This document shows positions 12,702 through 58,435 of a stretch of 64,000 nt of DNA, piece by piece; the first letter of the stretch is position 1, and each line of letters opens with the position of its first letter. The stretch is from an uncultured bacterium (lineage in GTDB: Bacteria; Patescibacteriota; Minisyncoccia; Phycocordibacterales; Phycocordibacteraceae): the NCBI GenBank assembly GCA_937879955.1, contig CALFMK010000001.1:201578-265577 (forward strand), in the 5' to 3' direction. Below the pieces are notes generated by a model. It worked only from the letters and a program-made list of their open reading frames with translations. It was not told where the DNA came from and searched no databases. Position numbers and translations under genes: made by a program.

Positions 12702-13370
12702 ATGGACATACGCACCATCGAACAGGATTCATACACCGAGGAAGGGCTCGGGTCGCTCAGCGAGATCCCGCAGCCACCAGAACGCCTCTGGCTGCGCGGC
12801 ACGCCCCCGCCGAAAGGAACGAGGAAGCTCGTAGTTGTCGGATCGAGATCGCTCACCGACTACGGCCGACATGCCTGCGAGTCTCTTATAAAAGGTCTCG
12901 CAGGGTATCCGGTATCCATCGTCTCAGGACTCGCGCTCGGGGCGGATGCCTGCGCGCATCGGGCCGCGCTCGCAGCCGGCCTCCATACCATCGCCATACC
13001 AGGCTCCGGGCTCGACGAACGCTTCATCGCGCCGCAGACGAACCTTGCCCTGGCGAAGGAGATCCTCGCGTCCGGAGGCGCGCTCCTTTCCGAGCATCCG
13101 CCGAAGACGCAGGCGCTTCCGCGCTACTTCCCTTCGAGGAACCGGATCATGGTAGGGATCGCCGACGCGGTGCTCGTCATCGAGGCGGGAGCACGGTCGG
13201 GAACGCTCATCACGGCGCGCCTTTCGGCCGAGTACGACCGCGCGCTCATGTGCGTCCCGCACCGCATCCACGAGGCCAATAGCTACGGTCCGCACCAGTT
13301 CATCAGGCTCGGCGCGGAGCTCGTCTCGGAGAGCGCGCATATACTCGAGACGCTCGGCATTCCTGCGTGA
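12702..13370 (+). CDS. dprA: DNA processing protein DprA/Smf (Rossmann-fold domain)
   Basis: LVVVGSRSLTDYGRHACESLIKGLAGYPVSIVSGLALGADACAHRAALAAG...GSGLD...LSEHPP matches the DprA/Smf family. Confidence 0.85.
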   Translation: MDIRTIEQDSYTEEGLGSLSEIPQPPERLWLRGTPPPKGTRKLVVVGSRSLTDYGRHACESLIKGLAGYPVSIVSGLALGADACAHRAALAAGLHTIAIPGSGLDERFIAPQTNLALAKEILASGGALLSEHPPKTQALPRYFPSRNRIMVGIADAVLVIEAGARSGTLITARLSAEYDRALMCVPHRIHEANSYGPHQFIRLGAELVSESAHILETLGIPA

Positions 13371-21144: not shown

Positions 21145-22068
21145 CTATCGGCCCGTCGGCGACCAGTGCACCGGATCGTCCGGGATGGCGTTGCGGAAGT
21201 TCCACTTTCCCCCGTTCGCCTTCAGCCACTGGTACGCCTTCGTGTTGCAGCTGCTGTTCCCGTTCGAGCAGCCGACGTTCAGGTCGAGCGCCTGTCCGGA
21301 GTTATGGTTCGATCCTGCGCCGCCGAGCGAGCATGGCATCGCGGTGGCGACGCGGCAGGTGCCGGTGGAGACGGAGCAGCCGTTCTGGTTCCAGAGCGCG
21401 ACCTGCGCCGCGTCCGAGCGGTACGCGCTCGTCACCTTCAGGTCCACGCCGTCCTTGAGCGCTGCGGCGCGCATGTCCATGAAATTCTTGACCGTCGTAG
21501 GCGTGGCCTTGCCTGAACCGCCTATGACCACCGAAGCGTCGAACGATACCATGGTCGACTCGGCAGGGACCGGGCAGTTCGTGCCAGTGCCGCCTCCGGT
21601 GCTGCCGGACGGCGCGCCCGGGACCGCGGTGATGGAGCCGTCGAAGAGGGGCGTGGTCGGCTTCGCCTCGATGCAATTCTCTCCGGTCGCGTCGAGAAGT
21701 ATCGAGTTCCAAGGACCGAACTGCCCGCCGTAGAGCGTCTTCATCACGAAGTCCACGATGAGCCATGCCGAGAGCACGATGCAGAGCCCAACGAACGCGT
21801 TCAGGAGCATGCTGCTCGCCGTGCCGCGCATCTCGGGGTTCGTCGGGGAGAGTATGTAGAGCCCGCCTGCCCACGCGACGATGATGGTCGCCACGATGAT
21901 AGAGATGCCGATGAGGAGGTTCGAGACGTTCTGGATGATGGCGAGCACGCCGCCGAACCCGCACGGGCACACCTGGCAGACGTCCGGCACGATCGGGCCG
22001 AACTGCGCATGCGCGTAGACCGGCACGAGCATGAGGAACGCGATGATCAAGGGAAGAAATCGTCTCAT
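21145..22068 (-). CDS. fusion protein: N-terminal TrbC/VirB2-like pilin-type membrane domain plus C-terminal peptidase M15 (VanY / D-Ala-D-Ala carboxypeptidase-like) domain
   Basis: Signal peptide MRRFLPLIIAFLMLVPVYAHA. Two-helix domain GFGGVLAIIQNV...LSAWLIVDFVMKTL is paralogous to the VirB2-like array at 38589-40511. C-terminal SAYRSDAAQVALW...HNSGQALDL resembles the M15 zinc-peptidase signature (SxxRxxxxQ...HxxGxAxD). Confidence 0.6.
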   Translation of the reverse strand: MRRFLPLIIAFLMLVPVYAHAQFGPIVPDVCQVCPCGFGGVLAIIQNVSNLLIGISIIVATIIVAWAGGLYILSPTNPEMRGTASSMLLNAFVGLCIVLSAWLIVDFVMKTLYGGQFGPWNSILLDATGENCIEAKPTTPLFDGSITAVPGAPSGSTGGGTGTNCPVPAESTMVSFDASVVIGGSGKATPTTVKNFMDMRAAALKDGVDLKVTSAYRSDAAQVALWNQNGCSVSTGTCRVATAMPCSLGGAGSNHNSGQALDLNVGCSNGNSSCNTKAYQWLKANGGKWNFRNAIPDDPVHWSPTGR

Positions 22069-22070
22069 GC

Positions 22071-22640
22071 TTATGGAAGACGGAACGACCCCTGACAAAA
22101 GCTGAGGCCCAGGTTCTGATAGGCCGAGAAGGCCTCGTTCACGCTGTACGGGACCCCGACGAGGATATCGAGCGTGCAGAGCTGTGCGTCCGTGAGCTCG
22201 AGCGTGTCGCGCAGGAACGCTTCCGCGGCGAGGCGCGAGGCGCCGAGCGGCTCCTCGTTCAGCGTCACGACGAACTGCGACCCCTCCTGATTGAACTGCA
22301 CGTCGAACGCGTGCGTCGGGTACGGCTTCCCTGGCTCGTAGTCAGGATAGGGCGTGAGGTCGTACTGCAGGTTCGTGGCACCCTCGCCGATCTGGACCGA
22401 GCTCTTTCCGGTCGTGAAGTCCGGCACGTCCACGGACTCCTGGTCCGCCGTCTCGATCGTGCGCGTCGTCACCGTCGCGCCAGACGTGCCGTCGGTGAGC
22501 GATCCGAACGGATTCGTTCCGGTCGGGCTTGTAGGGACGGTGCCCGTCGACTGCCCCTGAGAGAGGAGCACGTACGCGAGCACGGCGATGCCGAGGAGTA
22601 CGAGGACGACCGCGCTGCCGATGATCACCGATGTCTTCAT
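22071..22640 (-). CDS. membrane-anchored hypothetical protein (TM, Thr/Gly-rich linker, globular C-terminal domain)
   Basis: MKTSVIIGSAVVLVLLGIAVLAYVLL... ATG at 22638-22640 overlaps the upstream gene stop (ATGA). 2-nt gap to the downstream gene start. Confidence 0.5.
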   Translation of the reverse strand: MKTSVIIGSAVVLVLLGIAVLAYVLLSQGQSTGTVPTSPTGTNPFGSLTDGTSGATVTTRTIETADQESVDVPDFTTGKSSVQIGEGATNLQYDLTPYPDYEPGKPYPTHAFDVQFNQEGSQFVVTLNEEPLGASRLAAEAFLRDTLELTDAQLCTLDILVGVPYSVNEAFSAYQNLGLSFCQGSFRLP

Positions 22641-23647
22641 AGGCCCATGATACCAAACGCGAGCGGCCGGCTTTGCATGCTGTCCGCGAGCCCGCACTTC
22701 TTCGCGGCGCCCCACGGCGACCATGTCGCATGCGCGTCGAGATAGATCTTGTGCGCGGTAGCGATGTTGTTCGCCGGATTGATGGCGGCGGCCCTGCACT
22801 TGTTATAGAGCGTAGCGTCAACGACGCGGACGCCTGACCCTGCGCCGCACGAGCTCACGGTGCAGCTCTGCTTGCTGAAAGCGGCCGGACAGTTCAGTCC
22901 GCCTATCTTGTGCGCCGTTATGTTTATCTGGAACAGGCCGAACGAGTACGGCGTGCCGTCCCCGAGCCTGTCCACGCCGCTCGGGAGGCTCGCGTTGCCG
23001 TGGCTCTCGCCATAGCAGACCCGGGAGGCATTCTCCGCCGCCGTGCCGAACACGCCAAGCGCGCTCACCGCGCAGGAGCCGCTCGTCTGCGCGAGACAGG
23101 TGCCTCCTCCCGTGCTCTTGGTGGAAGTGCCTGTTCCACTATCCTGTCCAGGAATCCAGGTGATCTTGCCGTCGAAGAGCGGCTTCGTGTCCGTAGCCGT
23201 GACGCACACGTTCCCGCCCGAGAGGATCGTATTCCACGGCCCCCAGCCCTCGAGGTTCTGGTTGTAGAGGAGCTTCATCACGAAATCCACGATGAGCCAG
23301 GCCGAGAGGATGATGAGCAGCCCTATGGCGGCGTTCGTGAGCACCTTCTTCGCCTGCGAATGGTTCTCGGGGTTCGTAGGCGTCAGGATCCAGAGGATGC
23401 CGGCGAACGCGATCACGATGACGCAGATGATGATGCCGAAGGAAACCGACGCGTTCATCAGGTTCTGGATGAGCTGCAGCACGCCGCCGAATCCGAGCGG
23501 CGCCCCTACCGGGCAGTTGCTGTCGAGATCGTGCGCTTCCGGGACGAGCTGCCAGTTCGGATCGAGGAGCGGAAGGGACTGCGCGGACGCCGCAAATGGC
23601 AGGCACAGGAGAAGCGCGAGGAGGAGCGGGGCCCAGAGCCGGTTCAT
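22637..23647 (-). CDS. fusion protein: N-terminal TrbC/VirB2-like pilin-type domain plus C-terminal lytic transglycosylase (SLT/VirB1-like lysozyme-fold) domain
   Basis: Signal peptide MNRLWAPLLLALLLCLPFAASA. N-domain GFGGVLQLIQNL...LSAWLIVDFVMKLL is paralogous to gene 21145-22068. C-terminal CYGESHGNASL...YSFGLFQINITAHK fits the SLT catalytic E-S ... GLxQI motif. Confidence 0.6.
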   Translation of the reverse strand: MNRLWAPLLLALLLCLPFAASAQSLPLLDPNWQLVPEAHDLDSNCPVGAPLGFGGVLQLIQNLMNASVSFGIIICVIVIAFAGILWILTPTNPENHSQAKKVLTNAAIGLLIILSAWLIVDFVMKLLYNQNLEGWGPWNTILSGGNVCVTATDTKPLFDGKITWIPGQDSGTGTSTKSTGGGTCLAQTSGSCAVSALGVFGTAAENASRVCYGESHGNASLPSGVDRLGDGTPYSFGLFQINITAHKIGGLNCPAAFSKQSCTVSSCGAGSGVRVVDATLYNKCRAAAINPANNIATAHKIYLDAHATWSPWGAAKKCGLADSMQSRPLAFGIMGL

Positions 23648-24579: not shown

Positions 24580-27231
24580 CTAGCGCTTCACCACCTGGTA
24601 GATCTTCTGGGTCCGGTACACGTCGCCTGCCGGCACAGGGACGCCGCTCAGCGTGCCGGCGTACGGGCGGAGGTAGTACTTGATGTACCCGTCGGAGCGT
24701 TCCTGGAGGGACGATGTCTCGCGCGCGTTCGATTGGTACACGGGATCCGCGTAGTGGCGGTCCACCTCGTCCATGTTGAGCATGCGCGCGAGTATGCCGT
24801 AGCTGTCGTTATAGAAGGCTGCGGTGAGGAGGCGCGGGGCGACAGGATGCGTCGAGTCGGTATGCGCGGTGTACGCGGTCGCGTCCGGGTCAGGGATGCT
24901 CGTCCCGAACAGCTCGAAGCCTCCATCAGCGCCTGCGTTGCCGACGCTCGTATCCGGCCCCACGAGCATCAGCGCGTAATCTTCCTTGACCACCGAGTCC
25001 ACCGCCAGGGTGCGGGTGACGTCAGGGATGTAGCCCTTCGAGGTCACGAGCAGGTCATAGTCTACGTCCGCCGCCTTCGAGCTGTCTTCAGCGAACGTGA
25101 GCATGGTCGAGAATTGCGCCCGCATGCGGTCACCTATCCATGTCGTGCCGTTCGCGGCGCTCGCATAGTCTATCGGCGCGCCGTCCATGGATATGACGAG
25201 ATCGGCAGGACCCGTCTCGTGGCCGTGCGTGCCTCCGATGAACGCGGAGGCCGAAGGATCCGATCCTTGCTTATAGAGGTTTACGGCGAGCTCTATGTTA
25301 CCGACTCCGATCACGGTCGTGTTGCCGATCGTCTCCGGGGTCGTCCGCTCGTCCTGACCCATGTCATCGAACTCATCGACGCCAAGCGTTCCAACCTGCG
25401 TCTCATCGCTTATCATCAGGCCGCCGTCGTAGACGCGGTATCCGGTGGACGAGGCATTCTTCGTAGGCAACCCCTCGAGCGTGAGCACGTAGCTTGCCTT
25501 GTCGAGCCCGCTTGCCAGAGGAGTGCTCTTGACGGAGGTCCCGGCGCTGTACGTGTCCACGTCCTTCGTGGTGACGAGCGTACCTGCCTGATCATAGACC
25601 GACGCGCGGACGATGCCTCCCGTAGAGAGATAGCCGGCCCTCCAGTCTATCTTGGTGCCTGTGAACGGATAGACGATCGCTCCGCCCGGGAACAGCGTCC
25701 GGTTGACCGTCTGGGACGCGAGCGTGGTGCTCTGCCATGAGCTCAGCAGTCCCTTCGTCGTGATGCGATCGAGGGACGGGTAGGTCTGCATGCCGCCGTC
25801 ATACACTCGCCCATTTACAGGATTCGATGACGAGACGGCGATATCAACGGTATACGTTCCGGCAGGAAGCCCTGTCGCGAGCGCGACAAACTGGATGCCT
25901 GACGAATTACCCGTCAGATTGACCTGGCGCTCGCCGCCTGTAAGCGGTATGGCGTAATGCTCAGAGCTTATCTCGACTCCGCTCGTCTTGATGGTTATGG
26001 CAGCGATGCCTGCGCCACTCGCCTGTCCAAGGGTCCGCCACACGATTCGATCATTGGTGTCTATCGTTACGGTATACGTGGTCCGGTCACCTGGCGTCTG
26101 AGAGTAGATGATATCCGTGACGCCGCTGTTGGTCGCAGGCCCGACGAACGTCCCGGTACGGGAGCCCGCGCTCGTTCCCTGCGAGGTCTTTGACGAGGTC
26201 GCCTGCGTGCCGGAGACGGAGTTCGCGGCAGGCAGAGACTCGACGAAGCTTGCGTAGAGCTTGGCTATGGAGGCCCGGCGCATGCGCGCAGGCCCGGCGA
26301 GTCCCGGGTTCAGCCGTTCGCTGAAGAACCAGCGCACGTAATCCGTCCCGCCGAGCGGCGCGTAGACGACAAACTCGTCATAATCGCTTCGCAGCTTCTT
26401 GAGGAGAAGGGGCTCGAGATCATCCTCGCCCGTAGTGAACGTGAGGTCAGAAGAAGGAGTGGCGTTTCCTTCCGCATCGGCAGACCGCACGCGGAAGTGG
26501 TAGGTAGCGAACGCGGTAAGGCCGGTAAGCGTTATGGAATGGGACGTAACGAGCGTCGCCGAGGTGGATGCCGTGCCGTACGACGTCGTGGTTCCGAAAT
26601 CAACGCGCGAATCGCTCGGCTCGTCCGTGGTCCAGGTGATGGTCGCGGTGGTCTGGGTCACGGAAGAATCGATATCCGAGATGCTCGGCGCCGCCGGCAC
26701 TGCGGCGGGAGAGCTGCTCTTGTGCCCTCCGCTCCTCTTGGGTGCATCGATAGATGGTGCGCCGGTCGTTATGGACTCTGACGCGGCGATGGTCGCCTGA
26801 TCGAGCATTCCCGTGAGCGAGACGGCGTAGTACCCCGCGTTCCGCAGGAGCTGCTGAAGCTGGGTGATGAGCGAGGAGAGGAAAGATGGGGATGGGGATG
26901 GGGATGCAATGATGCTATCTGAAGATGTAGGGGATGCAATAACCTCCCCGTTTAGGATCGCGCGTGTCGCAGGCCCTACGTAGCCGAGAGATTCGAGTCC
27001 TTGGGACTTCTGGAAGTCCGCAACGGCCTGGAGCGTTACCTGGCCGTAGTAGCCGGTGACGTCCGCATTGAAGAAGCCCTTCTCCTTGAGAAGGGTCTGG
27101 AGCGCGGAGACGTCGGACCCGCTCATGCCCTTCTCGAGTGGGCGCTCGAACGTCGCTGCGGAGGCGAAGGGAGGCACGAGCAAGAACGCCACGAAGAAAG
27201 CGAAAGACGCCTTGCGGAAGCCAGAGAGCAT
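24580..27231 (-). CDS. large secreted cell-wall-associated protein (signal peptide, peptidoglycan-binding domain, fibronectin type III domain, beta-rich C-terminal region)
   Basis: Signal peptide MLSGFRKASFAFFVAFLLVPPFASA (ORF track extends to 27324). PG_binding_1-like block LEKGMSGSDVSALQTLLKEKGFFNADVTGYYGQVTLQAVADFQKSQGL. FN3-like ITWTTDEPSDSRVDFGTT...YHFRVRSAD. Confidence 0.65.
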   Translation of the reverse strand: MLSGFRKASFAFFVAFLLVPPFASAATFERPLEKGMSGSDVSALQTLLKEKGFFNADVTGYYGQVTLQAVADFQKSQGLESLGYVGPATRAILNGEVIASPTSSDSIIASPSPSPSFLSSLITQLQQLLRNAGYYAVSLTGMLDQATIAASESITTGAPSIDAPKRSGGHKSSSPAAVPAAPSISDIDSSVTQTTATITWTTDEPSDSRVDFGTTTSYGTASTSATLVTSHSITLTGLTAFATYHFRVRSADAEGNATPSSDLTFTTGEDDLEPLLLKKLRSDYDEFVVYAPLGGTDYVRWFFSERLNPGLAGPARMRRASIAKLYASFVESLPAANSVSGTQATSSKTSQGTSAGSRTGTFVGPATNSGVTDIIYSQTPGDRTTYTVTIDTNDRIVWRTLGQASGAGIAAITIKTSGVEISSEHYAIPLTGGERQVNLTGNSSGIQFVALATGLPAGTYTVDIAVSSSNPVNGRVYDGGMQTYPSLDRITTKGLLSSWQSTTLASQTVNRTLFPGGAIVYPFTGTKIDWRAGYLSTGGIVRASVYDQAGTLVTTKDVDTYSAGTSVKSTPLASGLDKASYVLTLEGLPTKNASSTGYRVYDGGLMISDETQVGTLGVDEFDDMGQDERTTPETIGNTTVIGVGNIELAVNLYKQGSDPSASAFIGGTHGHETGPADLVISMDGAPIDYASAANGTTWIGDRMRAQFSTMLTFAEDSSKAADVDYDLLVTSKGYIPDVTRTLAVDSVVKEDYALMLVGPDTSVGNAGADGGFELFGTSIPDPDATAYTAHTDSTHPVAPRLLTAAFYNDSYGILARMLNMDEVDRHYADPVYQSNARETSSLQERSDGYIKYYLRPYAGTLSGVPVPAGDVYRTQKIYQVVKR

Positions 27232-27320
27232 TAGAAAGAGTATATCACTTGCGTCTGCACCGTTGAGCAGAAAGCCAACATAGAAAAAGAGGCGGCACGA
27301 ATGCCGCCTCATGTAGTGAC

Positions 27321-27791
27321 TCACGCTGCGAGCTCTCCCGTCCTGGACGCGTCACGCGCGAACGACAGGACGGCGAACGGATCATTGAGCGAGAACGCCA
27401 CATGCGCGCTCGTCGCCTCATACCTCAGTTCCTGGATCTCCAGATTCCAAGACCCGTCCTTGTAATTGGCCATGAGGATCCGGACGGTTCCTTCGGCGTC
27501 GAGCACATGGAACGAGTAGCTCCCAGGCGGAGCTTCCCGGAGGAAATGGAACGCATGCGCCCACGCGACCGACAGCTTCTCGGCCGGCAGGCGCGGCATG
27601 AGCTGCGCCATCGCGACCGCCTGCACGTCGCGCTCGACGATCGCGCCCTCCTTCAGGAGCTCCTTGAGCCTCTGGCCGATCAGGCTGATCTTCAGCGCGC
27701 CGTCCGACCCGACCTTGAAATGGTCCTGGACGTCGAAGTAGTCGACCGCGAGCACGGTAGCGACCGGAATACGATTCTCTTGGAACGGCAT
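27321..27791 (-). CDS. hypothetical protein
   Basis: ATG at 27789-27791 (MPFQENRIP...). Upstream in-frame extension looks non-coding. Confidence 0.4.
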   Translation of the reverse strand: MPFQENRIPVATVLAVDYFDVQDHFKVGSDGALKISLIGQRLKELLKEGAIVERDVQAVAMAQLMPRLPAEKLSVAWAHAFHFLREAPPGSYSFHVLDAEGTVRILMANYKDGSWNLEIQELRYEATSAHVAFSLNDPFAVLSFARDASRTGELAA

Positions 27792-37864: not shown

Positions 37865-38515
37865 ATGGATTATATCTTTGGCCCCATACTCCTCTGGATC
37901 CCGATTGTCATCGTAGTCCTCGCGATCTGGTGGTTTAGCACCCACCGATCGGTCACCGTGAAGGCTCTCCATGTCAATGGACACGCTCCAGCGAAACCGA
38001 GCGAACCTGCACATCACAAAGATCACAAAGAAGATGATCATGGGCATGGTGGACACGGCCATGGGCATAACGAGACGCCGGCTTGGATTCATCTGCTAGG
38101 CTGGTGCGTGGCCATCGCCGTCGCGGCACTCATCGCGCTCTTCTTGCGGTGGTGTTACGTGACGTACGGCCTCGGCCAGATACCCGGCCCGTCGCGAGAA
38201 GTCCGAGAGGAGATCTCGCGACGGAACGGTTCCCACGGGATATCGGAGGTACCACCCTCCGATGCCCGGACCTGTTCCAGCGACCCAGCGTACAAGGTCG
38301 TGATCCAACCGGGAACGCGCATTACCGTGCACATCCCCCGGGATACCACGATCGACTTCAAGCCTGACACGAGCGAGGGGAATATCACGGCGTGCAGCTT
38401 CAGGAAGCCTGAGATCTGCTCGTCGAGCCTCCGCCGCATCAAGGGACACATCGACTACCTCACGATCACGAACGTCAGCGAGAATCCGGTGGACTTCACC
38501 TGCCGTTACCTGTGA
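37865..38515 (+). CDS. membrane protein with His-rich loop (HKDHKEDDHGHGGHGHGH) and C-terminal beta domain; possible NfeD-like SPFH partner
   Basis: Two TM helices flank a His-rich segment. 4 nt downstream of the SPFH gene (operon). Confidence 0.5.
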   Translation: MDYIFGPILLWIPIVIVVLAIWWFSTHRSVTVKALHVNGHAPAKPSEPAHHKDHKEDDHGHGGHGHGHNETPAWIHLLGWCVAIAVAALIALFLRWCYVTYGLGQIPGPSREVREEISRRNGSHGISEVPPSDARTCSSDPAYKVVIQPGTRITVHIPRDTTIDFKPDTSEGNITACSFRKPEICSSSLRRIKGHIDYLTITNVSENPVDFTCRYL

Positions 38516-38588
38516 GAAAGCACCTTGCGTCTTAGAACGCACAAAGCCGTCCTTCGGGACGGCTTTTTCCTTTACGCAGAGTCTCTGC

Positions 38589-38837
38589 CTATGGCGCCCC
38601 TACCGTAGCGCTCAGGAGCGAGACGATCGCGTTCGCGCCGAAGATGATCACGAGGCCGATGATGCCCCAGATCATGTGCTGCTGGCCCGTGGAGCGCTTC
38701 TCCTCGTTGTCCGCGCTCGCGATGAACTCGACGATACCCCAGATGAATATGAGGAACGCGCCGAGCGCGAGCAGCGTGATGATCGGCGTCAGGATCGCAT
38801 CCTGGACCTTGGTGATGAATGTGTCGAATGCGTTCAT
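38589..38837 (-). CDS. TrbC/VirB2-like small membrane protein (pilin-like), paralog 1
   Basis: Two hydrophobic helices separated by an ADNEEKRSTGQQ loop. WGIIGLVIIFGANAIV pattern shared with the four neighbouring paralogs. Confidence 0.55.
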   Translation of the reverse strand: MNAFDTFITKVQDAILTPIITLLALGAFLIFIWGIVEFIASADNEEKRSTGQQHMIWGIIGLVIIFGANAIVSLLSATVGAP

Positions 38838-38903
38838 AGGCGTCAGTATAGCAGAACGCCCGCAGTCTCCTGCGGGCGTTCTGCTATAGCTGTGGGTTCA
38901 GGA

Positions 38904-39269
38904 CTAGTTGACCTGAACCGAAGGAGTCACGTCTCCGACCGACGGCGCTCCGTTATTGAGCACGAAGGTTCCGCGGAGGATGTTCACGAGGCCCCACACG
39001 GATGCCATCACGAAGAAGCCGATGATGCCCCAGAGCATGAGGCTCTTGCCGGCCTCGCGCTTCTCCTCGTCTGCGCCTCCAGCGATGAAGTACTGGAACA
39101 CGCCCCAGATGAACACGACGAACGCGACGGCGAATACGAGCGGAACGAGGATGTTGTTGATGAGGGCGATGATCCCCTGTCCGATCGATCCTGCGCTGTC
39201 GGCCGTGACCTGCGCAGAGACGAGCGCTGGGAATACGAGAGCAGCGACGATGTAACCAAATTTCTTCAT
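38904..39269 (-). CDS. TrbC/VirB2-like small secreted membrane protein, paralog 2
   Basis: Signal peptide MKKFGYIVAALVFPALVSA, then LVPLVFAVAFVVFIWGVFQYFIAGGADEEKREAGKSLMLWGIIGFFVMASVWGLVNIL. Confidence 0.6.
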   Translation of the reverse strand: MKKFGYIVAALVFPALVSAQVTADSAGSIGQGIIALINNILVPLVFAVAFVVFIWGVFQYFIAGGADEEKREAGKSLMLWGIIGFFVMASVWGLVNILRGTFVLNNGAPSVGDVTPSVQVN

Positions 39270-39365
39270 AATGGATGTTTACGGATAACGCTTTGCGTAT
39301 TCATCTAGCATAGACCGGAATGAAGGCGCGTCAATAGAGCCTTTCAGGCCGTGTGGAAAACACTA

Positions 39366-39767
39366 TTACGGCGTCGGGCCGATCGAGCCGCCGCTGCCAG
39401 GATTGAACGTCGGAAGGTCCGGTGCGTTCACATTCCCGAACCCGAAGGTACCCACGAGCACGTTCACGAGGCCCCACACCGACACCATCACGAAGAAGCC
39501 GACGATGCCCCATATCGCGAGCTGCTTGCCCTGGTCACGCTTCTCCTCGTTCGCGCCGCCCGCGATGAAATAGAGGAAGATGCCCCAGATGAACGTGACG
39601 AACGCCACCGCGAACACCACCGGCACGAGCACGGCGTTGATGAAGCCGATGATGCTGAGGAGATACTGGGAGACCGTATTGCCGCCGATCTCGCCGCTCT
39701 GTGCATGGACGGCTCCGGCGGATACGAGGAACAACGCGAGCGAAAGGGCGAGTGTGCGGAATGTCAT
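39366..39767 (-). CDS. TrbC/VirB2-like small secreted membrane protein, paralog 3
   Basis: Signal peptide MTFRTLALSLALFLVSAGAVHA, then LVPVVFAVAFVTFIWGIFLYFIAGGANEEKRDQGKQLAIWGIVGFFVMVSVWGLVNVL. Confidence 0.6.
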   Translation of the reverse strand: MTFRTLALSLALFLVSAGAVHAQSGEIGGNTVSQYLLSIIGFINAVLVPVVFAVAFVTFIWGIFLYFIAGGANEEKRDQGKQLAIWGIVGFFVMVSVWGLVNVLVGTFGFGNVNAPDLPTFNPGSGGSIGPTP

Positions 39768-39816
39768 AGTACGTTTCAGAGTAGCAAGTAATGAAGGTCG
39801 GTCCAGAGCTTATGCA

Positions 39817-40119
39817 CTAGCCAGGAAGCGCCGTGAGCAGCAGGCGGACGATACCCCACACGGAGAACATCACCACGAACCCGATGATGCCCCAGAGCAT
39901 GAATGTCTTCCCTTTCTCCCGGCCTTCCTCGCCGCCGAGGAAGAAGAAGCGCACCATGCCGATAAGGAAGAGGATAAACGCGATCGAATAGATGAGCGGG
40001 ACCACAGCGGTGTTCACGAGCTCAACGATATCGGCCGTGAACTCCTTGAAGCTCGCGGCATGCGCGAAAGAAGGGATGACGAGCGCGAGAGAAGCGGACG
40101 CGAGGAGAAGCTTGCGCAT
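39817..40119 (-). CDS. TrbC/VirB2-like small secreted membrane protein, paralog 4
   Basis: Start MRKLLLASASLALVIPSFAHA (ATG 40117-40119). Core VVPLIYSIAFILFLIGMVRFFFLGGEEGREKGKTFMLWGIIGFVVMFSVWGIVRLL. Confidence 0.55.
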   Translation of the reverse strand: MRKLLLASASLALVIPSFAHAASFKEFTADIVELVNTAVVPLIYSIAFILFLIGMVRFFFLGGEEGREKGKTFMLWGIIGFVVMFSVWGIVRLLLTALPG

Positions 40120-40121
40120 GG

Positions 40122-40511
40122 TTACTGTACGATCGAATCCACCGTGCCCGTTATGATTGCCTGAATGCCGGTCGCGCCGAGCAGCACGAGGCCGCCGATG
40201 ATGGTCCACACGAGCGCGCTCTTCGCGCCCTGGAGCTTCTCCGCGTTCCCTCTCGCCGCGACGAAGAGGAAGCCCACGTAGACGAGCATCATGATGAGGA
40301 CGATCGTGCCGAGCCGTATCACGCCGTTGAGGATCGCGGTAAGAAACTCGTCGAGCGTGCTCACGCCGTTGAGCGGGTTCGTGAGTCCTGTGCTTACCGT
40401 CGTATTCCCGCCCGTGTTCGTGACTTGATCCGCGCGCGCCGCCGACGGAATCAGGAGTGCGAGCGCCAACGTCGCGGAGAAGCTCCTGATAGCACTGCTC
40501 ATGGTTCGCAT
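40122..40511 (-). CDS. TrbC/VirB2-like small secreted membrane protein, paralog 5 (more divergent)
   Basis: Signal peptide, then LGTIVLIMMLVYVGFLFVAARGNAEKLQGAKSALVWTIIGGLVLLGATGI. 2-nt spacing to paralog 4. Confidence 0.5.
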   Translation of the reverse strand: MRTMSSAIRSFSATLALALLIPSAARADQVTNTGGNTTVSTGLTNPLNGVSTLDEFLTAILNGVIRLGTIVLIMMLVYVGFLFVAARGNAEKLQGAKSALVWTIIGGLVLLGATGIQAIITGTVDSIVQ

Positions 40512-40521
40512 AGGATGGTGA

Positions 40522-41826
40522 TTATTTTAGTGCCGCGTCGAGCGACTGGCTCGCGGTCGACAGCGCGGTCGAGACCGTCGCCTTCCCCGTCGCGATGCTG
40601 CTAACCATCGTACCAAAGATACGGTCGGTCTCGGACGGCATCGGGGATAGCCAGCCCTTCGCGATGAGCGCCTCCGGGTAGTACACCGGCTCGTAGAGGT
40701 CGCCGCTCGAAGGCGAGAGCGCGTCGCGCCTCGCGGGCGCCATACCGAGCGCATGCGCGAAGAGGGGCACGGTCTCCTTCGACGACAATACCTGCGCAAC
40801 GCGCACGGCCCCTGATCCGTTCTTCGCGGCGCGCGGAACGGCGAACGCATAGGCCTTGCCGTACGTGATGCGGGTCGCGCTCTGCGCCGGGGCGGGCACG
40901 GGCGCCATGTCGAAGTCGAGATTCGGGTTCGCCTCGGAGAGGTCAGCGCGCTCGGACGCATAGCCGAGATAGAGCGCGAGGTCGCCCGAGAGGAACGCGA
41001 GGCGGTTCTCCGGGAGCGAGCGGTTCCAGGAGTACGCCGTCTTCGCCGGGTTCGCGAACTCGGTGTAGAAGTTGAGCGCACTCTCTGCGGGCTTGGTCCC
41101 GAAGGACGAGCCCTTCACGTCCGTGAGGTCCGACTCGATGCCGCTCGCCGTGCGGCCGGCGATGCCGTAGCCTGCCTGCATGAAGAGGAGCGAGATGATC
41201 GCGCGCGCGTTGTCGATGTTCTCGTAGGTACCGAGCGCGATGAGGCTCTTCACGACCTGCTGCGCTTCCGTCTGACGGTTCACCACCGACGTGAGGCCCG
41301 TCACCGCCTCCCAGGTGGACGGAGGACGCGCCGCGCCCGCCGACGCGAGGACCGGGCGGTTGTAGTAGAGCATCAAGGGGTCGACGAGGAACGGGATGCC
41401 GAACGTACCGCCCGTCGTGAGGAAGAGCTCGCTGATCGGCAGGTAGGAATCGCGGAAGTCGCGCTCGGATATGACCGAGGACGGCACCATGGAGAGCTTC
41501 CCCTCCGCCGCAGCGAGGTCCTCCTGCGAGATGAGGATGAGGTCCGGACCGCGCCCCGAAGCGATTGCTTCCGCAAGATCCGCATCGAAGGTGTCCGCGG
41601 AGCGCTCGAGGTAGGTGACGCTCGCGTACTCCGGCTTCCCCTGCTTCACGGCGCCGAGCGCCTCGTTCATGGCGCCTGCAGGCAAGGTGCCCCAGATAGA
41701 GACCGTGCCAACCTGCGGCGCGCCGGTCGAGAAGCCCTGGAAGGTCGCGAACAGGACGAGGCCGGCGAGCGCGACGAGGCCGAACACGGCCATGATGATG
41801 ATCTGGAACGGCTTCATGGTTGCCAT
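40522..41826 (-). CDS. extracellular solute-binding protein (ABC transporter substrate-binding, family 1-like), membrane-anchored
   Basis: N-terminal TM anchor MATMKPFQIIIMAVFGLVALAGLVLFA. About 400-aa periplasmic-binding-protein-like body. Family assignment by composition, moderate. Confidence 0.55.
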   Translation of the reverse strand: MATMKPFQIIIMAVFGLVALAGLVLFATFQGFSTGAPQVGTVSIWGTLPAGAMNEALGAVKQGKPEYASVTYLERSADTFDADLAEAIASGRGPDLILISQEDLAAAEGKLSMVPSSVISERDFRDSYLPISELFLTTGGTFGIPFLVDPLMLYYNRPVLASAGAARPPSTWEAVTGLTSVVNRQTEAQQVVKSLIALGTYENIDNARAIISLLFMQAGYGIAGRTASGIESDLTDVKGSSFGTKPAESALNFYTEFANPAKTAYSWNRSLPENRLAFLSGDLALYLGYASERADLSEANPNLDFDMAPVPAPAQSATRITYGKAYAFAVPRAAKNGSGAVRVAQVLSSKETVPLFAHALGMAPARRDALSPSSGDLYEPVYYPEALIAKGWLSPMPSETDRIFGTMVSSIATGKATVSTALSTASQSLDAALK

Positions 41827-41827
41827 A

Positions 41828-42358
41828 CTACGGTGCAGTGAATACGAGGGAATAATGATGCGGCCCGCCGCGGAACGCCTTAACCTTATGGAAGCCCGCT
41901 CCGATGAACAGGTCTTCCGCGACGTGCTCGGGCACTACGCGATGCGGATGCGGCCCGATGCCGCCGTACGCGCCCGCCCAGTCCACGACGAGCAGCTTCC
42001 CTCCGGGCTTCAGGATGCGCTTTATCTCGGCCACGGCGCCTTCGCGATGGTCGAGCTGGAAGAGCGTGTTCGAGAGGATCACGGCGTCGAGCGACGCGTC
42101 CCGCAGGCGCGTGCCGCCGAGCTTCTCGAAGTTCCCCCAGACCGTCTCGACGTTCCGGTGGCCGAGACCCTCGACGAAGTCCTTCACGTGCTTAAGGATG
42201 TCTTCCTGAATATCGACGGCGTACACTTTCCCTTCGGTGCCTACGATGGCGGCCGCGCTCGCGGCATAATGCCCTGAGCCCGCGCCGAGATCCCCGACCT
42301 TCATGCCGTCGCGAAGCCCCAGCTGCAGGACGTTGCTCTTCGGATCGCTGAAATTCAT
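41828..42358 (-). CDS. class I SAM-dependent methyltransferase
   Basis: Motif I VGDLGAGSGHYA, VYAVDIQ, post-I/II LKPGGKLLVVDW. Confidence 0.75.
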   Translation of the reverse strand: MNFSDPKSNVLQLGLRDGMKVGDLGAGSGHYAASAAAIVGTEGKVYAVDIQEDILKHVKDFVEGLGHRNVETVWGNFEKLGGTRLRDASLDAVILSNTLFQLDHREGAVAEIKRILKPGGKLLVVDWAGAYGGIGPHPHRVVPEHVAEDLFIGAGFHKVKAFRGGPHHYSLVFTAP

Positions 42359-42461
42359 ACACGGAGTATAGCAAGCGCGGCGCAGAGGCGCCGCGCAATC
42401 AACAAAAGGAAAAGACGCACCCTAGTACGGATGCGTCTCATTCATAGGACGTGTGGCCGGC

Positions 42462-42737
42462 TCATTCGAGCCGATTGAAGAACATGCTGTTCGGATTGCC
42501 CTTCGTGTAGGCCTGACCAGCGGGACTTTCCCGCCACGCTGCCACTTCCTTCGGGTCGTAGCCGCTCGGGCCGTACTTCGTCGGCGTCCCGATCTCAAGA
42601 CGGGCGGCCCGACCGATTGCAGCTGCGTCGGCATGATCCACTTGATCGGCCATGGAAAGATCTCCCTGTTTTGAAATTGATACGCAGGCATGGCACCTGC
42701 GACGGGTATAGAGTACCCCGCCCACAGGCTTTGTCAA
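42462..42737 (-). CDS. hypothetical small protein
   Basis: 91-aa ORF upstream of gyrA; start uncertain. Confidence 0.3.
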   Translation of the reverse strand: MTKPVGGVLYTRRRCHACVSISKQGDLSMADQVDHADAAAIGRAARLEIGTPTKYGPSGYDPKEVAAWRESPAGQAYTKGNPNSMFFNRLE

Positions 42738-57184: not shown

Positions 57185-58435
57185 CTACACCTTCGCTTTC
57201 GGCTCGTTCATGTCCCAGATGAGGGCCGCCACGTTGCGAGGCTTCCCTTCGAACGGGAGATGATGGTTGTCGAAGAACGGCATGCTGTTGCACTCGAGTA
57301 TGCCGCAGCGGTCCTGCTCCTTCCATGAGCGGCTCATGTCGCCGACGATGAAGTCGAGGCCCACGATCGCCGCCTTGAGCACGCGTGCCACCTCCTCGAA
57401 GAGCGCGATGTTGTCAGGGTGGGTCTCATCCGTGACGTCCGCGGTGGTGCCGCCCACGCTCCAGTTGATCTTCTGGTGCAGCGTCGCGCGTACGCCTTCC
57501 GGCAGCACGCTGTCGACGGTGAGCCCCTGCCACGCGAGCTCGGCTTCGGCCAGGGCGTCGAGCTTCATCTGGTGGAAGTAGGGGCCCGAGCGGGCCGGAT
57601 GCTGGTTCGCCTTCTCGACGAGCTCCGCTATGGTGCTCACCCCGTCCCCTATGACATGCGGCTGGTCCCTGCGGAGCGCCGCCGCGAACTTCCCGTCGAC
57701 GACCGTCGCGCGGTACACCGAGCCGACGAGCTCCTCCTCGATCACGACCTTCGGCGCGATCTGCTTCGCGATCCTGAAGCCGCGCGCGAGCTCCTCTTCG
57801 TTCGTTATGTGAAGGACGGTATGACGGGAGGCGGAGCCCGAGAACGGCTTCGCGATGACCGGCGGCGTGAGCGTCTTGAAGAGCTTCTTCGCCTCCTTGA
57901 GCGTCTCTACCGCCCCGCCCTTCGCTACCGGCAGTCCGAGCTTCCGGAACTTCTCCTTGAGCACCGCCTTGTTGTCCATCCACGGTACGCGCTCAATCTC
58001 TGCCTTCCCAGGGATCGGGATGCCCTCGTACGCGATCTGCCTGCCGTCCGGATACCTCGCCACGAAGATGTTGCGCGGAAGGTTGAAGAGGCGGAACTCC
58101 GCGACCTCGATCCCCCGCTCCTTCGCCTCGTTCCAAAGCATGAGCGCGAGCAGCTGCGTGTCGTCGTCCGCTTCCGTGACGCGCGTCGCCCATCCTTGAT
58201 CCATCATCATGTTGAGTATCTTCGGGGTGAGCCTGCGCTCGATGCCGTAGACGATCCGGGCTATCGCGCGGAAGAGCGCGTTCGGGGTCGTGAGGGGCGC
58301 CATGATCTCGTCCACGACGATGCTTATATAGGTGGTCTTATGGAAGATGGCCCCGTCGCCGCACTCGGCGCATTCCTGGGGCTTCGGGAGTGTGAATGCC
58401 ATGGTCCGTACAGTATAGCTCATATGCTTGGCCAT
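57185..58435 (-). CDS. stand-alone ATP-grasp protein homologous to the N-terminal (aspartate-adding) module of cyanophycin synthetase CphA; N-terminal Cys-rich segment
   Basis: Long collinear similarity, from memory, to CphA residues about 1-470: HVIGDGVSTIAELVEKAN.., LDSVLPEGV..ATANLSTGGTA-like INWSVGGTTADVTDETHPDN, GLDIAGIDVV-like GLDFIVGDM, and the terminal NSMPFFDNHHLPFEGKPRNVAALIWDM vs CphA NAAPGFRMHVAPSQGIPRNVAAPVIDM. No Mur-ligase-like C-terminal domain follows. Confidence 0.6.
   Translation of the reverse strand: MAKHMSYTVRTMAFTLPKPQECAECGDGAIFHKTTYISIVVDEIMAPLTTPNALFRAIARIVYGIERRLTPKILNMMMDQGWATRVTEADDDTQLLALMLWNEAKERGIEVAEFRLFNLPRNIFVARYPDGRQIAYEGIPIPGKAEIERVPWMDNKAVLKEKFRKLGLPVAKGGAVETLKEAKKLFKTLTPPVIAKPFSGSASRHTVLHITNEEELARGFRIAKQIAPKVVIEEELVGSVYRATVVDGKFAAALRRDQPHVIGDGVSTIAELVEKANQHPARSGPYFHQMKLDALAEAELAWQGLTVDSVLPEGVRATLHQKINWSVGGTTADVTDETHPDNIALFEEVARVLKAAIVGLDFIVGDMSRSWKEQDRCGILECNSMPFFDNHHLPFEGKPRNVAALIWDMNEPKAKV

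Follow-up and report, generated by a model that had tools for sequence, protein, structure and literature searches.

A conserved chromosomal array of five divergent VirB2-like pilin paralogues in a member of the Patescibacteria

Overview

Our analyses of a 64-kb stretch of genomic DNA from an uncultured member of the Patescibacteria (64,000 nucleotides (nt) of contig CALFMK010000001.1, hereafter the window) have examined five consecutive, co-directional small genes on the minus strand at positions 38589–40511, here named P1 to P5 in their order of transcription. The interpretation that we favour, and consider reasonably probable, is that these genes encode five divergent VirB2-like pilins, paralogues that are arrayed on the chromosome and inherited vertically, which serve as specialised subunits of a monoderm-type type IV secretion system (T4SS) encoded elsewhere in the genome. 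Judged by the comparison of eight genomes described below, the five genes are old, fixed and non-redundant paralogues under purifying selection.

A large share of the diversity of uncultured bacteria belongs to the Patescibacteria, which live attached to other microbes. In the only species examined for it, their T4SS is essential; arrays of pilin genes are its oddest feature, because Gram-positive-type systems are normally without a pilin. Arrays of this kind have already been described, so that the present finding is real and not new, and the window adds no new kind of object. What it adds is that, in one lineage of the Paceibacteria, the array is a stable set of five parts kept by purifying selection. 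Its members differ in architecture, one of them lacking a signal peptide, the set has no linkage to virB4, and pilin-hydrolase fusions are encoded in the same window. A stable, selected and architecturally distinct five-part set favours a multi-subunit structure over antigenic variation, and it offers concrete candidates for a major subunit (P4), a display subunit (P1) and a base subunit (P5).

Genes of the array and their family assignment

The five genes, as given by the listing of open reading frames (ORFs), are the following, with lengths in amino acids (aa).

P1, 40122–40511, minus strand: 129 aa; putative signal peptide (inferred cut between ARA and DQ), variable Thr/Gly/Asn-rich linker, conserved GL(V/T)NPLNG box, two-helix hairpin
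P2, 39817–40119, minus strand: 100 aa counted from ATG; putative signal peptide (inferred cut between AHA and AS) and hairpin
P3, 39366–39767, minus strand: 133 aa; putative signal peptide (VHA, then QS), hairpin, variable Pro/Gly-rich C-terminal tail
P4, 38904–39269, minus strand: 121 aa; putative signal peptide (VSA, then QV), hairpin, C-terminal tail
P5, 38589–38837, minus strand: 82 aa; hairpin alone, without a signal peptide

The ORF listing thus bears out the coordinates given in the first-pass annotation of the window, which had reported five co-directional genes of 82–133 aa. The intergenic gaps from P1/P2 to P4/P5 are 2, 49, 96 and 66 nt. The 2-nt gap, which had also been reported, lies between P1 and P2, where the stop codon TAA of P1 (40124–40122) is followed by CC and then by the ATG of P2 at 40119; the length of P2 is counted from this ATG, and the mechanically called ORF reaches a GTG at 40209 and overlaps P1. 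The G+C content at third codon positions (GC3) of P1–P5 is 0.80–0.90, which matches that of other real genes in this window of 63% G+C. Exactly seven ORFs in the window match the family hidden Markov model, viz. P1–P5 and two fusion proteins encoded at 21145–23647.

All five proteins score above the gathering threshold (26.6 bits) of the Pfam family PF18895 (T4SS_pilin), with 27.5 (P1), 37.9 (P2), 42.0 (P3), 47.1 (P4) and 44.7 bits (P5) and E values from 3e-6 to 3e-12, the score of P1 being barely over the threshold. Matches to the TrbC/VirB2 family PF04956 (threshold 27.9 bits) are all below threshold for P1 (20.4 bits), P5 (20.1 bits) and P2 (11.5 bits), and P3 and P4 have no match to it in the Pfam scan. 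The sole consistent match of P1–P5 in NCBIfam is NF045849, the Mbov_0395 family of pilin-like conjugal transfer proteins, at 24.3–38.4 bits (E 1.9e-5 to 7.5e-10; cut-off 40), which makes them related to this family and not members of it; the best of these matches is that of P5 (38.4 bits, E 7.5e-10), with 69 of 80 profile positions aligned. Homologues of P4 number 462, all of them PF18895 proteins, and among the homologues listed those that carry NCBI names are called "pilin". The PF18895-type family as a whole comprises 13,874 representatives at 50% identity. On these profile scores P1–P5 are firm members of PF18895. The description "VirB2-like" is based on curated naming, weak profile similarity and architecture, and not on demonstrable homology to T-pilin.

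The suggestion of a TrbC/VirB2-like family in the first-pass annotation agrees with these results, in that all five proteins belong to PF18895, three have sub-threshold matches to PF04956 and no competing holin or immunity family was found. We have also considered that P1–P5 might be unrelated small hydrophobic proteins (holin-like or bacteriocin-immunity proteins, or spurious ORFs) that resemble each other through low-complexity hydrophobic helices. The proteins are indeed short and very hydrophobic, and several unrelated membrane families appear at E values of 0.01–0.2. However, PF18895 is the best match of each copy and exceeds its curated cut-off, no holin or immunity family passes for any of P1–P5 in the Pfam and NCBIfam scans, the GC3 values indicate genuine coding frames, and there are hundreds of homologues and conserved synteny; this explanation is already effectively refuted, and we assign it a negligible probability. 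None of P1–P5 matches the type IV pilin N-terminal family PF07963 (N_methyl) at E≤1 in the Pfam scan, and identities as holins, bacteriocin-immunity proteins or type IV pilins were rejected, no such family having scored.

Architecture, conserved motifs and predicted fold

An alignment of seven domains (P1–P5 and the N-domains of the two fusion proteins) has a common layout of a helix, a charged loop and a second helix, in which only two columns are invariant. For P1–P5 the first-pass annotation had proposed one shared architecture of signal peptide, hydrophobic helix, charged loop and second helix. The two-helix hairpin with its short charged loop is supported by an AlphaFold2 model of P4 and by hydropathy and alignment for all five, whereas the signal peptide fails for P5. 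The N-termini of P1–P4, judged by eye and not with a predictor, are hydrophobic, signal-peptide-like and end in A-x-A, and the unequal N-terminal extensions that had been noticed among the proteins are also present. P5 lacks a signal peptide in all eight of the genomes compared below; its ORF has no possible in-frame upstream extension, the starts of its orthologues coincide, and its hydropathy profile has only two hydrophobic stretches (residues 11–43 and 53–82), compared with three in P2–P4. The model of P4, built from 29 sequences with a mean predicted local distance difference test score (pLDDT) of 76.6, has helices at residues 3–17 (signal), 26–63 and 68–101 (the hairpin), followed by a disordered tail.

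The two motifs described earlier for all five copies, a charged loop and a WGIIGFxVMxSVWG-type second helix, hold strictly only in part of the array. The loop GGA(D/N)EEKRxxGK and the helix motif (M/A)(L/I)WGI(I/V)GFxVMxSVWG(L/I)V are found in their strict forms in P2–P4 only, while P1 and P5 have degenerate forms and read LVWTIIGGLVLLGATGIQ and MIWGIIGLVIIFGANAIV, respectively.

Orthologous arrays, divergence and selection

The closest genomes to the window are metagenome-assembled genomes of Candidatus Paceibacterota/Parcubacteria, P4 being 83% identical in DASWXP010000002.1, and an identical sequence is present on a Logan contig from SRR14271332. We have aligned the array region from eight genomes, viz. 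the window and seven relatives (L002, L003, L005, L006, L007, L008 and L010). Exactly five pilin genes, in identical order, with identical flanks and with 1:1 orthology, are present in all eight. The mean identity within the sets of orthologues is 54–77%, in comparison to 21–47% between paralogues; within the window, the paralogues are 25–51% identical in pairwise comparisons (56% for P3 and P4 when three sequences are aligned). Since every array position forms a clade of its own across the eight genomes, the duplications are old, and the view of the first-pass annotation that these were old duplications with diverged sequences is thus upheld.

The ratios of nonsynonymous to synonymous substitution (dN/dS), calculated by the Nei-Gojobori method for each gene and genome pair, are 0.03–0.34 gene-wide for the five array genes, values that are rough since dS ranges from 0.4 to >2 and is partly saturated. 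P5 is the most conserved copy overall (45 of 82 columns invariant, dN/dS 0.03–0.19) and P4 the most conserved of those bearing a signal peptide (60 of 123 columns, dN/dS 0.07–0.23), while P3 is the least conserved orthologue set (31 of 156 columns invariant). Variation and indels cluster in three segments, viz. the linker at the mature N-terminus of P1 and the C-terminal tails of P3 and of P4, all of which would lie outside the cell in the topology of VirB2.

In more distant Paceibacteria the synteny gyrA–methyltransferase–solute-binding protein–array–unknown gene–Band_7...IF-2...clpB is kept, with five or six array members. The imported regions of three wider relatives (L031, L034 and L037) hold four to six pilin genes, of which the last two are constant, viz. 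a P4 type with a signal peptide and a P5 type without one; the middle members of arrays in wider relatives often lack the signal peptide. The first array gene in wider Paceibacteria (L031, L034, L037, L042 and L045) encodes additional N-terminal sequence inserted ahead of the hairpin and after the signal peptide, which ranges from about 30 to several hundred residues and is often Cys-rich or Gly/Ser/Pro-rich; one such protein, in L042, is 573 aa long.

These comparisons bear on the possibility that the array is a variation cassette, i.e., a set of five interchangeable major pilins that vary the exposed surface or match different host strains, in the manner suggested for the paralogous VirB2 proteins of Bartonella and Anaplasma. 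Such a role has been raised as a possibility in the literature (PMC12102498), and it would be in keeping with the high divergence of the paralogues, with differences between species in the length and sequence of the P1 linker and the P3 and P4 tails, and with array sizes of 4–6 in wider relatives. However, copy number, order and orthology are fixed in eight species, orthologues are far more alike than paralogues, and the gene-wide dN/dS values are low throughout the range given above. Further, the members differ in signal peptide and extension, which is a poor fit to interchangeable variants, no repeats or recombination signals were seen in the array, and each of the intergenic regions carries conserved signals of its own. 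Membership is fixed, the architectures are distinct and selection is purifying, a combination that speaks against an antigenic-variation cassette and in favour of non-redundant subunits; we regard the cassette as improbable. The diversifying pressure that the first-pass annotation had suggested, as for antigenically variable surface subunits, is accordingly not borne out at the level of whole genes: free variation is confined to the linker of P1 and the C-terminal tails of P3 and P4.

Putative expression signals

Four elements in and around the array resemble transcription signals.

39307–39334, minus strand: sigma-70-like promoter upstream of P4 (TTGACG, 16 nt, TATGCT)
38852–38883, minus strand: GC-rich, terminator-like hairpin between P4 and P5 (RNAalifold, seven genomes)
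38845–38853, minus strand: TGCTATACT element (extended -10-like; TGCTATnnT), which follows the P4–P5 hairpin, 7–9 nt before the ATG of P5
38543–38566: terminator-like hairpin after P5, with a stem of 10 bp and a T-run behind it; the convergent gene at 37865–38515 shares it

The promoter-like site of P4 is the only one found in a scan of 38400–42500, and its boxes, TCTATTGAC and CTAT(C/G)CT, are conserved in all eight genomes. It is followed by a leader of about 45 nt before P4, which contains CGTTACCCGTAATCA and is likewise conserved in the eight genomes. The whole P3–P4 intergenic region (39270–39360, minus strand), which holds a GTTTTCCACAC box, the TCTATTGAC...CTATCCT pair and the leader, is unusually conserved across these genomes; the GTTTTCCACAC box may be a regulator site and the P4 leader may be an RNA element. 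A search with Rfam matched nothing but tRNAs anywhere in the window.

The hairpin between P4 and P5 has 14 pairs and a folding energy of −27.6 kcal/mol, with compensatory changes at 5 pairs. This hairpin, together with the TGCTATACT element so close to the start of P5, suggests that transcription terminates after P4 and that the mRNA of P5 is leaderless. An element akin to TGCTATACT, CTGCTACnCT, is present within about 10 nt of the start of P3 (about 39777–39786). The hairpin after P5 is found at the same place in relatives. P1 and P2 look co-transcribed with the upstream genes for a solute-binding protein and a methyltransferase.

Proposed role of the array

By analogy with VirB2 and TraA, the hairpins of P1–P5 would undergo Sec-dependent insertion into the cytoplasmic membrane, so oriented that the two termini lie outside the cell and the charged loop within it, and would form there a membrane pool of subunits. 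A VirB4-dependent, monoderm (MPF-FATA-like) T4SS encoded elsewhere in the genome would then extract the hairpins, and the extracted subunits would be built into a pilus or conduit that spans the envelope where the cell meets its host. The five proteins would be specialised, non-interchangeable subunits of one structure and not alternative antigenic variants. More tentatively, P4 is the likely major subunit; its gene has a conserved promoter-like site of its own and is followed by a conserved hairpin. P1 could be a subunit that displays its variable N-terminal segment, and P5 may be a membrane-retained or nucleating component.

The pilin-hydrolase fusions that the first-pass annotation had reported at 21145–23647 are real.

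22637–23647, minus strand: PF18895 domain and lysozyme-like C-domain (PF18896 SLT_3 at 22.3 bits, below threshold; GESHG...GLFQIN motif)
21145–22068, minus strand: PF18895 domain and VanY peptidase (PF02557 at 48.7 bits)

Between the two genes, inside the ORF 22071–22799, lies a gene for a 189-aa single-helix membrane protein. The PF18895 domains of the two fusions are 51% identical to one another and about 20% identical to P1–P5, and the VanY fusion reaches 25.1 bits against PF04956 (threshold 27.9). Of the 120 protein clusters listed at 90% identity, about 85 combine PF18895 with VanY, and many of their N-domains also reach PF04956. These fusions could represent a VirB1-like function tethered by a VirB2-like module. 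In addition, inspected members of the 13,874 family representatives include proteins (P0241–P0246) in which one chain holds two or three complete hairpins of the pilin type, joined by linkers of 20–40 residues; these proteins may be either Rosetta-stone fusions or polytopic membrane proteins.

An elaboration of the proposed mechanism, which we regard as speculative and rather unlikely in this complete form, is a heteromeric filament or conduit of a Gram-positive-type T4SS built from obligate partners, in which P1 would provide display or adhesion, P4 the bulk and P5 a membrane-retained base, and in which the pilin-hydrolase fusions would be incorporated via the same hairpin. If this were true, the fusions would present wall-degrading enzymes to the surface of the host cell, the proteins with two or three hairpins would indicate, as Rosetta-stone fusions, that the paralogues touch each other directly, and the P1 segment would be a lineage-specific display domain that reaches several hundred residues in relatives.

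Weighing a pilus against membrane-resident hairpins

The main rival to an array of pilin subunits is that the hairpins never form a fibre, PF18895 being a two-helix anchor or a small channel or platform subunit of an integral-membrane complex that is possibly unrelated to VirB4. This would liken P1–P5 to the small membrane proteins of Gram-positive conjugation systems, and the nearest NCBIfam model does describe a Mycoplasma protein of about 80 aa from integrative and conjugative elements (ICEs). The PF18895 module anchors VanY and lysozyme-like hydrolases in the window and widely elsewhere, two or three hairpins in one chain amount to a membrane protein of 4–6 helices, and no T4SS ATPase was found among the scanned proteins of the 64 kb. 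Gram-positive T4SSs, moreover, are generally without pili (PMC12102498; PMC10633639). On the other hand, genes of this type lie near virB4 in 1,135 assemblies (PMC12102498), pilins are located inside an essential T4SS cluster in Southlakia epibionticum (PMC10633639), and a signal peptide followed by a hairpin with variable external termini is the layout of the pilus-forming VirB2 and TraA. In the pilin topology, hydrolase domains fused to the module would be placed outside the cell too, as would the linkers of the multi-hairpin proteins; the hydrolase fusions are therefore no obstacle to incorporation into a fibre, and both kinds of protein are compatible with contacts between paralogues in one. 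On balance, we consider purely membrane-resident hairpins unlikely.

Several observations weigh against an array of pilus subunits. The hydrolase-fused and multi-hairpin PF18895 proteins fit a role as membrane anchor or channel as well as they fit a pilus, and according to the papers cited here, a T4SS pilus has not been seen in any Patescibacterium. Comparison of the family alignments with VirB2 of A. tumefaciens by hhalign (the VirB2 sequence verified against PDB entry 8cue) gave a probability of <1%, profile searches of PDB sequences returned nothing relevant, and a Foldseek search of the P4 model against the PDB returned only generic helical proteins (best E 0.79), a result that is uninformative for a bare helical hairpin. 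No match to VirB4, VirB6, VirD4, VirB3 or TrsD-type proteins was obtained among the approximately 35 proteins of the window scanned with Pfam and NCBIfam, so that the array lies at least 38 kb and at least 23 kb from any such gene on its two sides; the view of the genome is that of the 64-kb window. The roughness of the dN/dS estimates, noted above, belongs with these points.

Relationship to published arrays and other systems

VirB2-like pilins have been surveyed in 3,035 Patescibacteria genomes with PF18895 and PF04956 and were found in 1,948 VirB4-positive assemblies, in 1,135 of these 1,948 near virB4 (Quinonero-Coronel et al., 2025; PMC12102498). The survey recorded 441 VirB2 arrays of 2–11 genes in 383 assemblies, most abundant in Microgenomatia and Saccharimonadia and with a mean identity of 25% (maximum 54%) between members, and it speculated on host-range versatility by analogy with Bartonella and Anaplasma (PMC12102498). 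A 2025 review regards such arrays as a hallmark of the T4SS of Patescibacteria (PMC12857230), and in Southlakia epibionticum a series of predicted pilins, located inside the T4SS cluster, is essential by transposon sequencing (Tn-seq) (Wang et al., 2023; PMC10633639). Under the published definition (at least two PF18895/PF04956 genes in tandem or one gene apart, in Patescibacteria) the genes studied here, with their gaps of 2–96 nt, are such an array, and their pairwise identities of 25–51% accord with the published divergence of members (mean 25%, maximum 54%). Adjacency to virB4 or a T4SS cluster, which is not obligatory in published arrays, was not observed in the window or in the relatives L045 and L046, where no T4SS ATPase or channel family lies within 10 kb of the array. 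The genome of Parcubacteria C7867-004, which is listed as VirB4-positive (PMC12102498, Table S1), carries an orthologous array (L007), and this very orthologous group has very probably been described already.

The array resembles other patescibacterial arrays, including the six-pilin series of Ca. Southlakia epibionticum ML1 and the 441 published arrays, in its phylum, Pfam models, tandem small co-directional genes, strong divergence of paralogues and chromosomal location. It differs in that the Southlakia array is inside a T4SS cluster, whereas the present one has no T4SS gene among the scanned proteins of the 64 kb, its constant neighbours being genes for a methyltransferase, a Band_7 protein and an orphan solute-binding protein; and while the published arrays are most abundant in Microgenomatia and Saccharimonadia, this one is from Paceibacteria. 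With A. tumefaciens VirB2, RP4 TrbC and F TraA (PF04956; T-pilus structures 8cue and 8exh), P1–P5 share small size, a two-helix hairpin and a short charged loop. The signal peptide, cleavable in those proteins, has a putative counterpart in four of the five copies here, and the predicted topology has both termini outside. The differences are the sub-threshold PF04956 scores (11.5–20.4 vs 27.9 bits) and the hhalign result already mentioned, a monoderm host without an outer membrane, the lack of an adjacent virB operon, and five paralogues instead of one gene.

The virB2 clusters of Bartonella and Anaplasma phagocytophilum are similar in their tandem amplification, divergence and occurrence in host-dependent bacteria; they have been read as antigenic or host-range variation, whereas the array here consists of fixed 1:1 orthologues of differing architectures under purifying selection. 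The Mbov_0395/MMCAP2_0565 family of Mycoplasma ICEs (NF045849) is likewise made up of two-helix proteins of about 80 residues from a monoderm, MPF-FATA-type system, but its members are single genes on mobile elements, in contrast to a chromosomal array whose proteins score 24–38 bits against a cut-off of 40.

Genomic context and other features of the window

The window is an ordinary stretch of chromosome, with gyrA, topA, dprA, parB, clpB, the gene for initiation factor 2 (IF-2), ftsA/ftsZ-like genes, ten tRNAs and a type IV pilin gene. An origin of the array from a mobile element was considered and rejected, as the array sits in conserved gyrA...IF-2...clpB synteny. Its immediate neighbours are the following.

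41828–42358, minus strand: S-adenosylmethionine-dependent methyltransferase (Pfam Methyltransf_11), upstream of the array and co-directional, with a 1-nt gap to the next gene
40522–41826, minus strand: orphan solute-binding protein with a hydrophobic N-terminus (Pfam SBP_bac_8), ending 10 nt before P1
36689–38515, plus strand: Band_7/SPFH protein gene followed after 3 nt by a gene for a His-rich (HGHGGHGHGH) two-helix membrane protein (37865–38515), both convergent with the array

The order methyltransferase–solute-binding protein–array is conserved in L001, L002, L045 and L046, and the pair of Band_7 and His-rich genes adjoins the array in all relatives examined. No ABC permease is present near the SBP_bac_8 gene, and the His-rich membrane protein has no family match.

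Two further components of surface appendages and DNA uptake named by the first-pass annotation were confirmed, viz. the type IV pilin at 838–1356, which matches N_methyl (PF07963), and DprA at 12702–13370 (TIGR00732, 188.7 bits). A 914-aa protein encoded at 24580–27324 on the minus strand has PG_binding_1 and fibronectin-III-like domains and otherwise belongs to no family; it is probably a large, cell-wall-associated surface protein. Lastly, a 416-aa ATP-grasp protein encoded at 57185–58435 on the minus strand has a match to cyanophycin synthetase that is limited to its ligase portion (E 1.5e-63, far under the family cut-off) and is an unusual enzyme for a reduced genome.

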